From: Okamejei kenojei
Lineage: Eukaryota
Length of the DNA stretch: 64,000 bases
NCBI GenBank assembly: GCA_035221665.1
Contig: CM069139.1
Location: 57,350,001-57,414,000, forward strand
Direction: 5' to 3'
Part shown: positions 16,883 to 62,867 of the stretch, one piece after another
Layout of the letters: each line of letters begins with the position of its first letter
How positions within the stretch are numbered: position 1 is the stretch's first letter
Translations under genes and position numbers: made by a program
Notes under the pieces: generated by a model
Told to the model about the DNA's origin: nothing
Database searches by the model: none
The model's input: the letters and a program-made list of their open reading frames with translations, nothing else

Positions 16883-17006
16883 GTTTAAATGTAAAAACAA
16901 GGAAGCTGGTTTTCAAAACAGACACAGAGCTGGAGTAACAGCTGGTCAGGCAGCATCCTTGGAGTACATGGACATGTGACATTTTGGTCGGGACCCTTCT
17001 TCAGAC
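16883..17006 (-). mobile_element. Short Penelope-like repeat with decayed hammerhead core, TSD-flanked
   Basis: AAAATCAAAT direct repeat at 16873-16882 and 17007-17016; - strand starts GTCTGAAGAAGGGTCCCGACC. Confidence 0.75.
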
Positions 17007-28147: not shown

Positions 28148-28275
28148 CTGAAGAAGGGTCTCGACCCGAAACGTCGCCTATTCCTTCGCTCCAAAGATGC
28201 TGCCTCACCCGCTGAGTTTATCCAGCTTTTTTGTCTACCTTCGATTTTTCCAGCATCTGCAGTTCTTTCTTAAAC
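28148..28275 (+). mobile_element. Short Penelope-like repeat with intact hammerhead core
   Basis: CTGAAGA-A-GGGT-CTCG-ACCC-GAAA-CGTC at 28148-28175 followed by the family body gatgctgcc...gctgagtt...ccagcatctgcagttc. Confidence 0.75.
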
Positions 28276-45254: not shown

Positions 45255-45762
45255 AGGAAGGAACTGCAGATGCTGGTTTACACTGACGATAGACACCAAA
45301 AGCTAGAATAACTCAGTGGGTCAGACAGCTTCTCTGGAGAAAAGGGACTGAACCACACTGAGCAGGTGCACCAGTGTCCTCTGAACAAGGGGGTGATAGG
45401 AAGAGGGCGGGGGGGGGGGGGGGGGGTGGAGGGAGGTGGGGAGGAGTATTGAGATTGATCAGCACTCTGCCAATAGTCATTGAAGCGGATTCAATGTTGA
45501 CTTTCCGAGGAGTATTACATACTTCTGAAGAAGGCAAGAATTGCAGAAATACACGGACAGAGAAGGGGCCAATTGTGCAACTCTATCTTAGTGTGACCAG
45601 TCAAGATGCTACTGCACTGCATGTTCCAGCAGTCTGAATAATGGTCCCAATCTAAAATGTCACATATCCATGTTCTCCAGAGAGGTTGCCTGACCTGCTG
45701 AGTTACTCCAACACTTTGTGTTCCTTTGGTGTGAACCAGCATCTGCAGTTCTATATTTCTGC
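45255..45762. mobile_element. Inverted pair of Penelope-like repeats
   Basis: Family body on - at ~45255-45345 and on + at ~45630-45762. Confidence 0.65.
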
Positions 45763-46563: not shown

Positions 46564-46639
46564 CATCCACTGAGGCTAAAAGATGTATATTTTGTACTCT
46601 GTGCTGAAATTCAAGGAACACAGTCATTAATGATAAATA

Positions 46640-47172
46640 AAAGGTGCTGCAGTAACTCAGTGGGATGGGCAGCATCTCTGCAGATCATGGACAAGTGACG
46701 TTTTGGGTCAGGACCCTTCTTCTGACTGATTGGTGTGAGGAGAAGAAAGCTGCAAGAGAAGAGGGGACAGGAAAAAGTCTGGCTAGGGTGAATACTGGTT
46801 TAGATAGGCAGATGGTTGAACGAAGTCCAGCGATGAAAAGACAAAAAGCGCAAGGATAGAAGAGACACGATTGTGAAGCCAGAAGAAAGAATATAGATGG
46901 AAGGGGATGGGAGAGGGGGAGCAGAAATGAGGGGGTAAACAGGGAGGGGGGAGGGAGAAGTGGGGAGGGTTCTTTGGAGGTTTGTTACCTAAAATTAGGG
47001 AATGCATGATATCCTATGTGGCTGGGACAAAGATAATCTATTCCTCTGAAGAAGGGTCCCAACCTGAAACATCACCTATCCATGTTCTCCGGAGATGATG
47101 ACTGACCCGCTGAGTTACTCCAGCACATTGTGTCTTTTTTGCAAACCAGCATTTGCAGTTCCTTGTTTCTGC
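46640..47172. mobile_element. Penelope-like fragment with inverted terminal repeats
   Basis: - copy 46640-46730 with purine-rich extension to ~47010, + copy 47046-47172; both carry decayed hammerhead cores. Confidence 0.7.
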
Positions 47173-52154: not shown

Positions 52155-52415
52155 TTGTCGGTTGGCTTCCATTCTCCTCCCCCCCCCCCCCCTCTTTTCC
52201 CGTGTTCATCTCTAACCTATTACCTGCATGCGTTGTCCTGCCCCTCCTTTCTTCCCGCCCTCTTTTCCCACCCATCGACAATCAGTCTGAAGAAGAGTCC
52301 CGACCTGAAAAGTCACCTATCCATGTTCTTCAGAGATGCTATCTGACCCGCTGAGTTACTCCAGCATATTGAGTCTTCTTTTGCAAACTAGCATCTGCAG
52401 TTATTTGTTTCTATG
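52155..52415 (+). mobile_element. Penelope-like 3' fragment with hammerhead-like core
   Basis: Pyrimidine-rich tract, then CTGAAGAAGAGTCCCGACCTGAAAAGTC (52287-52314) and the family body. Confidence 0.7.
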
Positions 52416-61939: not shown

Positions 61940-62182
61940 TTGTTTTAGAGATACATCGTGGAAACAGGCCCTTTGGCCCACCAAAGTCATGCCAACCAGC
62001 GATCACTCGTACACTAGTTCTATCCTGTAACTCACAAACCTGAACATCTTTGGAATGTGGGAGGAAACCCAAGCAGTCAGCCAGGAAGAATGTACAAACT
62101 CCGTACAGACAGCACCCGTGGTCAGGATTGAACCCGGATCTCTGGCACTGTAAGGCAGCAGCTCTACCACTGCGACACCGCC
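61940..62182 (-). mobile_element. HE1-like V-SINE
   Basis: Reverse-complement SINE. Confidence 0.85.
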
Positions 62183-62320
62183 TCAAAGTATGTCAGTGAC
62201 CCCACCGGCCACCCTTCCCCTCAAGATCCCTCAGTGACCTCACTGATCGTCCCTCACTCAAGTTGCATCAATGAGCCCAATCATTAATCAAGTCAAGTCA
62301 AGGGAGTTTATTGTCATGTG

Positions 62321-62414
62321 GTTACACAAAAGGCTGGAGAAACTCAGCAGGTGCAGCAGCATCTAAGGAGCGAAGGAGATAGGCGACGTTTCGGGTCGAG
62401 ACCCTTCTTCAGAC
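62321..62414 (-). mobile_element. 94-bp hammerhead-core mini-element with 11-bp TSD
   Basis: ATTGTCATGTG at 62310-62320 and 62415-62425; - strand starts GTCTGAAGAAGGGTCTCGACCCGAAACGTC. Confidence 0.85.
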
Positions 62415-62867
62415 ATTGTCATGTGTCCCAGATAGGACAATGACATTCTTGCTTGCTGCAGCACAACAGAATATTGTAAGCATAAATACAGAACATTACT
62501 TTAATATTAATGACTAATTGGGGTCAAGGAAAGAGCGTTCACGTCGCGGCCCTGTTTCCACCAATCTTTCCACCACCACGCACAAGAAGCACAAGCGACA
62601 AGACAGACACGATTGTGTGCAGATGCTGAGAAGTGTGTTCAGCTCTGGCTGAACAACTTCTAATCTTGTGTGTGGACTCGATAAGAAGAAGAATGAGTAA
62701 CATGCTAGTCACATGCTTTTTCTGTTGTTTCCTGTTCGCCAGCTCGGGGGGCTTTATGGGTGCTGTTGAATAGAGTTGACTGCTGCCTATGTTGGGAATT
62801 GTGCCCCTTTGCTTCTGAGAGTCCCATTGGACCTTCACTTGCTGTAACCTGCAGAGAGCGGTTCTAG

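Follow-up and report, generated by a model that had tools for sequence, protein, structure and literature searches.

The 94-bp insert at 62321..62414 of the window (the whole stretch of 64,000 nucleotides analysed here) is the commonest single product of its family. By its sequence it is not a separate retroposon but a piece of an abundant Penelope-like element (PLE), bordered on both sides by a target-site duplication (TSD) and starting at the 5′ edge of a hammerhead motif. It was probably formed as a by-product of the PLE, by a reverse transcriptase (RT) that primed at the internal start site in the head of the element and ran off the likely capped 5′ end of the RNA. Taken alone, the insertion is ordinary (real, young and of a known kind of element); it is the population pattern of clustered ends that is likely to be new and to have testable mechanistic content.

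The insertion and its target-site duplication

The following features were located in the window:

62321..62414, minus strand: 94-bp insert, element positions −2..+91 of a Penelope-like pseudo-LTR (pLTR), tailless, its 3′ end being the first of the two common ones
62310..62320, strand not given: TSD, copy beside the element's 3′ end, exact 11-mer
62415..62425, strand not given: TSD, copy beside the element's 5′ end, flush joint without extra base
62385..62414, minus strand: minimal type I hammerhead motif, read against the description in the available text of PMC4209133
62288..62496 (upper limit approximate), minus strand: host repeat, a short fragment from the 3′ end of a different retroposon; (CTTGA)n tail at 62288-62302, insertion point next to its AATAAA

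Element positions are numbered on the minus strand, position 0 being the C of the hammerhead CUGA (window 62412). The exact 11-bp direct repeat at 62310-62320 and 62415-62425 is spaced by 94 bp, and a flanking repeat of this kind would arise by chance with a probability roughly estimated at 2×10−4. In minus-strand orientation, 2 nt of the insert precede CUGAAGA, and its end lies 64 nt beyond the predicted cut site. The TSD base adjoining the element's 3′ end could alternatively be element-templated, as judged from sister copies.

The first-pass annotation had proposed a mobile 94-bp unit with a perfect 11-bp TSD that interrupts the tail region of another retroposon, and both points were borne out. 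The host is a retroposon 3′ end whose minus strand bears the (CTTGA)n tail, and the 11-mer stands on both sides of the insert and, in the host repeat, once; it was single in 20 of 20 fetched host copies (within about 250 bp), and the empty-site pattern of the host repeat gave 3,661 exact matches in the genome. Three of the 20 host copies (L064, L068, L073) run on into the end (C-terminus) of an ORF that we take to be LINE-like. The insert had also been called young, with its CpGs retained. Its youth is upheld by the presence of only two differences from a full-length copy, namely a C>T change at +63 (CpG decay, the sole private change found) and the common +80 variant, but not all CpGs were retained (five of six). 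A 105-bp skip was found in four public contig sets, with zero depth over the unique flanks; this skip may stem from host paralogues.

The hammerhead motif

The motif consists of a 2-bp stem I, CUGAAGA (62412-62406), an extra base, stem II (62404-62393), GAAA (62392-62389) and a palindromic stem III. The predicted cut lies after 62385 (after +27, i.e., +27/+28), and the motif in the insert is uncut. Judged by these sequence features, the pLTR of the parent element carries a minimal hammerhead with predicted cleavage activity. A search of the window against Rfam at gathering score gave no match, the hammerhead was not the minimum-energy structure in the predicted fold of the monomer, and the insert folded no better than its shuffles (z=0.14). 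A type III reading was discarded on inspection by eye, since stem I does not form.

The parent element

Exact genome matches numbered 25,144 for a 38-nt core pattern, 61,830 for a 28-nt pattern of the 3′ part, and 10,699 for a pattern reaching 30 nt upstream. In longer copies a GIY-YIG frame and then an RT frame are met upstream of the hammerhead. Two loci (L161 and L162) contain open frames of 1,197 codons, with the RT and, C-terminally, a GIY-YIG domain in one ORF; Pfam matches to this frame (RVT_1, E=5e-6; GIY-YIG, E=0.004) were both just under gathering score, and the YIDD and YIG motifs are visible. Both loci are arranged in the order truncated copy, hammerhead region, tail, ORF and hammerhead region again, and this partial-tandem pLTR structure was found in L161, L162 and L164. 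The first ATG of the long frame is at +162, beyond the tail. An optional tail of 30-40 bp and inverted arms are likewise present in the element; 31 of the 78 copies sampled for their ends (see below) were arms of inverted pairs, and in 29 of these 31 a tailed arm was paired with a tailless one. On the evidence of these domains and arrangements the parent is assigned to the endonuclease-positive PLEs. The RT and GIY-YIG domains are separated by a Cys-rich linker (C-x4-C-x2-C), which suggests the Neptune clade, and the element probably belongs there; in the available text of PMC8557442 such a linker before the GIY-YIG domain is a feature of Neptune that is also present in Nematis.

Three further long copies (L317, L344 and L171) had their 5′ ends at +2 (after G), +90 and +47, respectively, with no truncated copy upstream.

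Short and long copies

In a comparison of 200 short with 114 ORF-linked long copies, variants at five sites differed in frequency at none of them (+80 T>C, for example, in 55/200 short and 28/114 long copies). Divergence amounted to 1.03 changes per 77 nt in either set, tails were present in 74/200 short and 45/114 long copies, and no variants peculiar to the short copies were found. Since variants, divergence and tail fraction are shared, the short copies are not an independent element, and the minimal non-autonomous retroposon considered in the first-pass annotation was given up. Its other suggestion, a stereotyped Penelope truncation product integrating with TSDs, stands as regards stereotypy, Penelope origin and TSDs, but "truncation" is likely the wrong word for many copies. 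No subfamilies with diagnostic changes of their own, as expected of a SINE-like element, were seen among these 200 short and 114 long copies. A non-LTR retrozyme would have a tandem of at least two hammerhead units and unit ends set by self-cleavage; the insert has one unit between its TSDs and ends at −2 and +91, as against a cut at +27/+28.

Distribution of the ends

Copy ends and TSD lengths, the tabulation of which had been suggested at the outset, gave a shared 5′ window, two 3′ sites and frequent TSDs. The first 100 matches to the 3′ pattern on contig C1 (0-4.03 Mb) were taken, a selection that is independent of the 5′ end; 22 were left out as sister subfamilies by sequence markers (several with different upstream sequence), and 78 remained. 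The 5′ starts of these 78 copies fell at −7..+8 (43 copies), +9..+18 (7), +19..+28 (0) and +29..+52 (5, including 3 at +29..+31); none lay at −8..−30, and 23 were further upstream. Expressed per copy at risk, 43/66 ended at −7..+8, 0/23 at −8..−30 and 0/73 at +19..+28. The stop rate was thus 4.1% per nt in the hot spot versus 0.05-0.11% further upstream, and most ends were at −4..−1. Given the sharp 5′ ends at −7..+8 and their absence from +19..+28, the 5′ end of the insert, whose hammerhead is intact, is not determined by the ribozyme cut.

The two 3′ ends are about 35 nt apart, near +92 or at the tail end (about +127). An exact TSD of at least 7 bp flanked 15 of 25 solo hot-spot copies; mismatched flank pairs gave one in 20 of 600. 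A pooled set of 135 solo units, biased by the search pattern, included 73 with a TSD of at least 8 bp (8-17 bp, one of 25 bp). Among these 73, the 52 tailless units measured 89-108 bp (mode 94) and the 21 tailed ones 126-145 bp. Extrapolation from 25 of 100 anchors (4 Mb) to the 61,830 matches gives roughly 15,000 solo units in the genome.

Long copies cross the hot spot without a trace: 91 of them showed no indel excess there, and linkage is kept across it (−54 with +80, D′=1.0). Being free of scars and linked, they have the appearance of copies made without interruption from the 3′ priming site. As their source, a retrovirus-like transfer of strands from one molecule to another is unsupported by these 91 copies, in which no scars are seen and linkage is kept; strand transfer within one molecule is possible.

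The base preceding the 5′ end

Copies starting at −3 (n=2,234) were preceded by G in 992, A in 787 and T in 455 cases (G expected, 28%), so that A exceeds T here too; those starting at −2 (n=3,735) were preceded by G in 1,803 and by C or T in 1,932 cases (G expected, 30.5%). Where loci were sampled, a long copy carrying a substitution accounted for 10 of 25 cases with T, and those with G mostly lay outside a resolved TSD. G preceded 21 of 44 hot-spot junctions versus 17 of 74 upstream truncations (Fisher, p=0.008). The excess is found mainly in inverted arms (12/20); in solo copies it was not significant, with G in 9/24 for an expectation of 7 (p=0.25) and with p=0.08 in the comparison with long solo copies. 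The insert itself has no extra G. Hot-spot restarts within composite insertions followed a G in five of nine cases. A cap can be copied as an extra G, as described in work on L1. Such evidence is suggestive of a capped start rather than decisive.

Composite insertions

A tail-to-ORF junction pattern gave 189 exact matches against 61,830 anchors, and composites are accordingly rare. Twenty of 30 fetched junction loci were composites (19 events), the others being nine long copies and one single piece ending at +167. In a composite, the first piece stops within the ORF start (17 events at +192..+282, two at about +570) and is joined directly to a second one whose end lies at or close to a priming site. 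Both pieces started no more than 4 nt apart in 12 of the 19 events (two read by eye), and four of these 12 lay off the hot spot (−42/−43, −49/−49, −41/−41 and +38/+39), where stops are otherwise rare. Among 18 composites examined, 13 were enclosed in one TSD of at least 9 bp and one in a TSD of 7 bp, and four had none. We infer that the RT, having primed in the head, copied a short RNA up to its physical 5′ end, switched to an RNA's 3′ end and made a further copy. The same private changes recur in both passes of L343; the passes of L337 differ at the polymorphic +80 site, which counts against a one-molecule reading. As the composites were picked by their junction pattern, they show that a head-priming route exists, not its share among the short copies.

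Three passes were seen in four events (L334, L340/L341, L342 and L343), with 5′ ends at −41..−56 and repeated ORF-start junctions. This group possibly represents a second group of start sites, circular RNA or a tandem source, and those with a repeated junction (L334, L343) could derive from circular RNA or a tandem source locus.

Mini head-to-tail duplications (L025, L198, L200, L205, L221 and L185) run from the hot spot to about +23..+39 and then restart at the hot spot, often after G; the piece in L200 ends at the hammerhead cut site. Their lengths presumably resemble those of short promoter-proximal RNAs. Oligo-A was seen at the end of the ORF-start piece in L336 (10 nt), L326 and L329 (about 4 nt each), and neither AAUAAA nor AUUAAA occurs in −3..+700 of L161. 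When positions 1852-3051 of L161 were compared with contigs of another organism (run X21), joints back to the hot spot were found, one of them from +188 in four contigs and several with G or AG in between; these joints hint that the hot-spot pattern is also present in a relative.

Origin of the short copies

In the pathway that is considered probable, a promoter in the pLTR would start the RNA at about −6..+4, just before the hammerhead core; the available text of PMC2377424 and PMC8557442 places the transcription start of Penelope in its pLTR. AT-rich DNA would be nicked by the RT-GIY-YIG protein with a stagger of 8-17 nt, the length seen in the TSDs. The RT would then prime at +92 or at about +127; both ends are found among the copies, and the priming mechanism is adopted from the Anolis element in vitro. 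The partial tandem has two sets of these internal priming sites, one in its head and one at its 3′ end. If the head copy were used, only 90-130 nt of template would lie upstream, so that the cDNA would be complete at about 94 or 130 nt. It would be joined to the target, sometimes with an extra G; alternatively, the RT may jump to an RNA's 3′ end and copy again, which would give composites of the kind observed. An insert formed in this way is likely a dead-end by-product. A broader claim is made tentatively and is itself open to considerable doubt, namely that the main product in vivo is a strong-stop-like cDNA that is primed in the head of short capped RNAs and integrated with a TSD, jumps of the RT from the 5′ to the 3′ end giving two to three copies within a single insertion. 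If true, it would explain the genome-wide excess of single hammerheads, and also the one-tail inverted pairs, without ribozyme cleavage, and possibly also the birth of pLTR tandems and retrozymes.

Clustered 5′ ends might also arise if the long transcript were copied from a 3′ primer, the RT stopped at a structure or a bound protein at the 5′ edge of the hammerhead, and 5′ joining were normal. The same survival curve is predicted, no new mechanism is required, and hot-spot starts fail to account for about half of the ORF-junction loci. We nevertheless regard such stalling as rather unlikely. A predicted helix of +1..+9 with the tail at +116..+124 (probability about 0.5) could stop the RT nearby, but ends would then be expected 3′ of the helix, and most lie at −4..−1; pieces that stop within the ORF start and then resume from an identical 5′ base, four of them off the hot spot, are left unexplained, and a G excess is not predicted. 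Processing of the template, either by a 5′-3′ exonuclease halted at a ribonucleoprotein core or through a splice-acceptor-linked end, would account equally well for composites in which the 5′ end recurs. Immediately upstream of −1 there are a pyrimidine tract and CAG, in D. virilis the 5′ end of hammerhead helix I coincides with the end of the intron (available text of PMC4209133), and the oligo-A at three composite junctions suggests decay intermediates. This explanation is improbable all the same, given that CAG or AG is kept in many copies, that no common upstream exon was recognised by eye in 135 printed junctions, and that an uncapped end leaves the G without a reason.

High copy number, fixed length (mode 94) and TSDs would suit an independent SINE- or retrozyme-like non-autonomous element that spreads from its own short masters, and retrozymes do derive from pLTRs (bioRxiv 10.64898/2026.07.22.740005). 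The lack of private variants, the equal divergence and the similar tail fractions (200 short, 114 long copies) make it very improbable, and so do the dispersed, non-tandem positions of the copies and the dependence of priming in Anolis on RNA downstream of its start sites (PMC11167929), a stretch absent from short copies. That the unit is the reverse-transcribed product of hammerhead self-cleavage is scarcely credible: three of 78 copies do start at +29..+31, and the mini-duplication in L200 ends at the cut site, but 0/73 start at +19..+28, and for the insert this origin is refuted by its own sequence, which contains the whole uncut motif.

Relation to known systems

The literature already describes hammerheads in PLEs as well as single dispersed motifs, tails and inverted arms, and also TSDs and internal priming. 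The present element shares with the endonuclease-positive PLEs, as described in the available text of PMC8557442, PMC3846280 and PMC2377424, a single ORF for RT and C-terminal GIY-YIG, partial tandems of pLTRs, inverted 5′ arms, the optional 30-40-bp tail, the minimal pLTR hammerhead and TSDs; the same text gives variable 5′ truncation, whereas here about half of the sampled copies end in one 16-nt window. In vitro, priming by a PLE takes place at two internal sites, one at either limit of the tail; RNA extending past these sites is required, and the template is uncut (PMC11167929). This element, Poseidon of Anolis carolinensis (PAc; Frangieh et al. 2024, PMC11167929), resembles the present one in having two internal RT start sites at the limits of the tail, both downstream of the hammerhead, and in copying uncut RNA; its template in vitro spans the pLTR-ORF junction. 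The two 3′ ends found here, about 35 nt apart, match both of its start sites, which supports internal priming. The ORF of PAc begins inside the hammerhead, unlike the long frame described above with its first ATG at +162, and the main text reports no clustered genomic 5′ ends, extra G or end-to-end composites.

Thousands of single dispersed minimal hammerheads in metazoan genomes, "probably related to truncated PLEs", are described in the available text of Cervera and de la Pena (2014, PMC4209133). Architecture and dispersal are the same as here, whereas self-cleavage and circles are proposed there and the present ends lie off the cut site. Non-LTR retrozymes (PMC7229834, available text; bioRxiv 10.64898/2026.07.22.740005) are likewise non-coding and pLTR-related and carry a type I hammerhead; they differ in forming tandem arrays of at least two hammerhead units, with circular RNAs demonstrated in several species, from the present units with one uncut motif and no lineage of their own. 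The texts cited here and the literature listings searched contained no description of 5′ ends clustering at the edge of the hammerhead, of an extra G or of head-derived composites, and nothing of relevance was seen in the available text of PMC12602865. Internal priming has been demonstrated in one in vitro study. The ends and junctions of the approximately 15,000 solo units record the PLE reaction and give exact predictions for RNA start, priming sites and template jumps.

Further repeats in the window

A further very high-copy repeat, SINE-like by eye, lies directly before the host repeat at about 61940-62180 (depth table). A tailed copy of a sister subfamily was found on the plus strand at 28148-28275, starting at position 0 and with no clear TSD. 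Five older copies (16929-17006, 45632-45721, 46639-46726, 47045-47133 and 52285-52374) have 71-78% identity to the insert, and their alignments likewise extend to the 5′ edge of the hammerhead.
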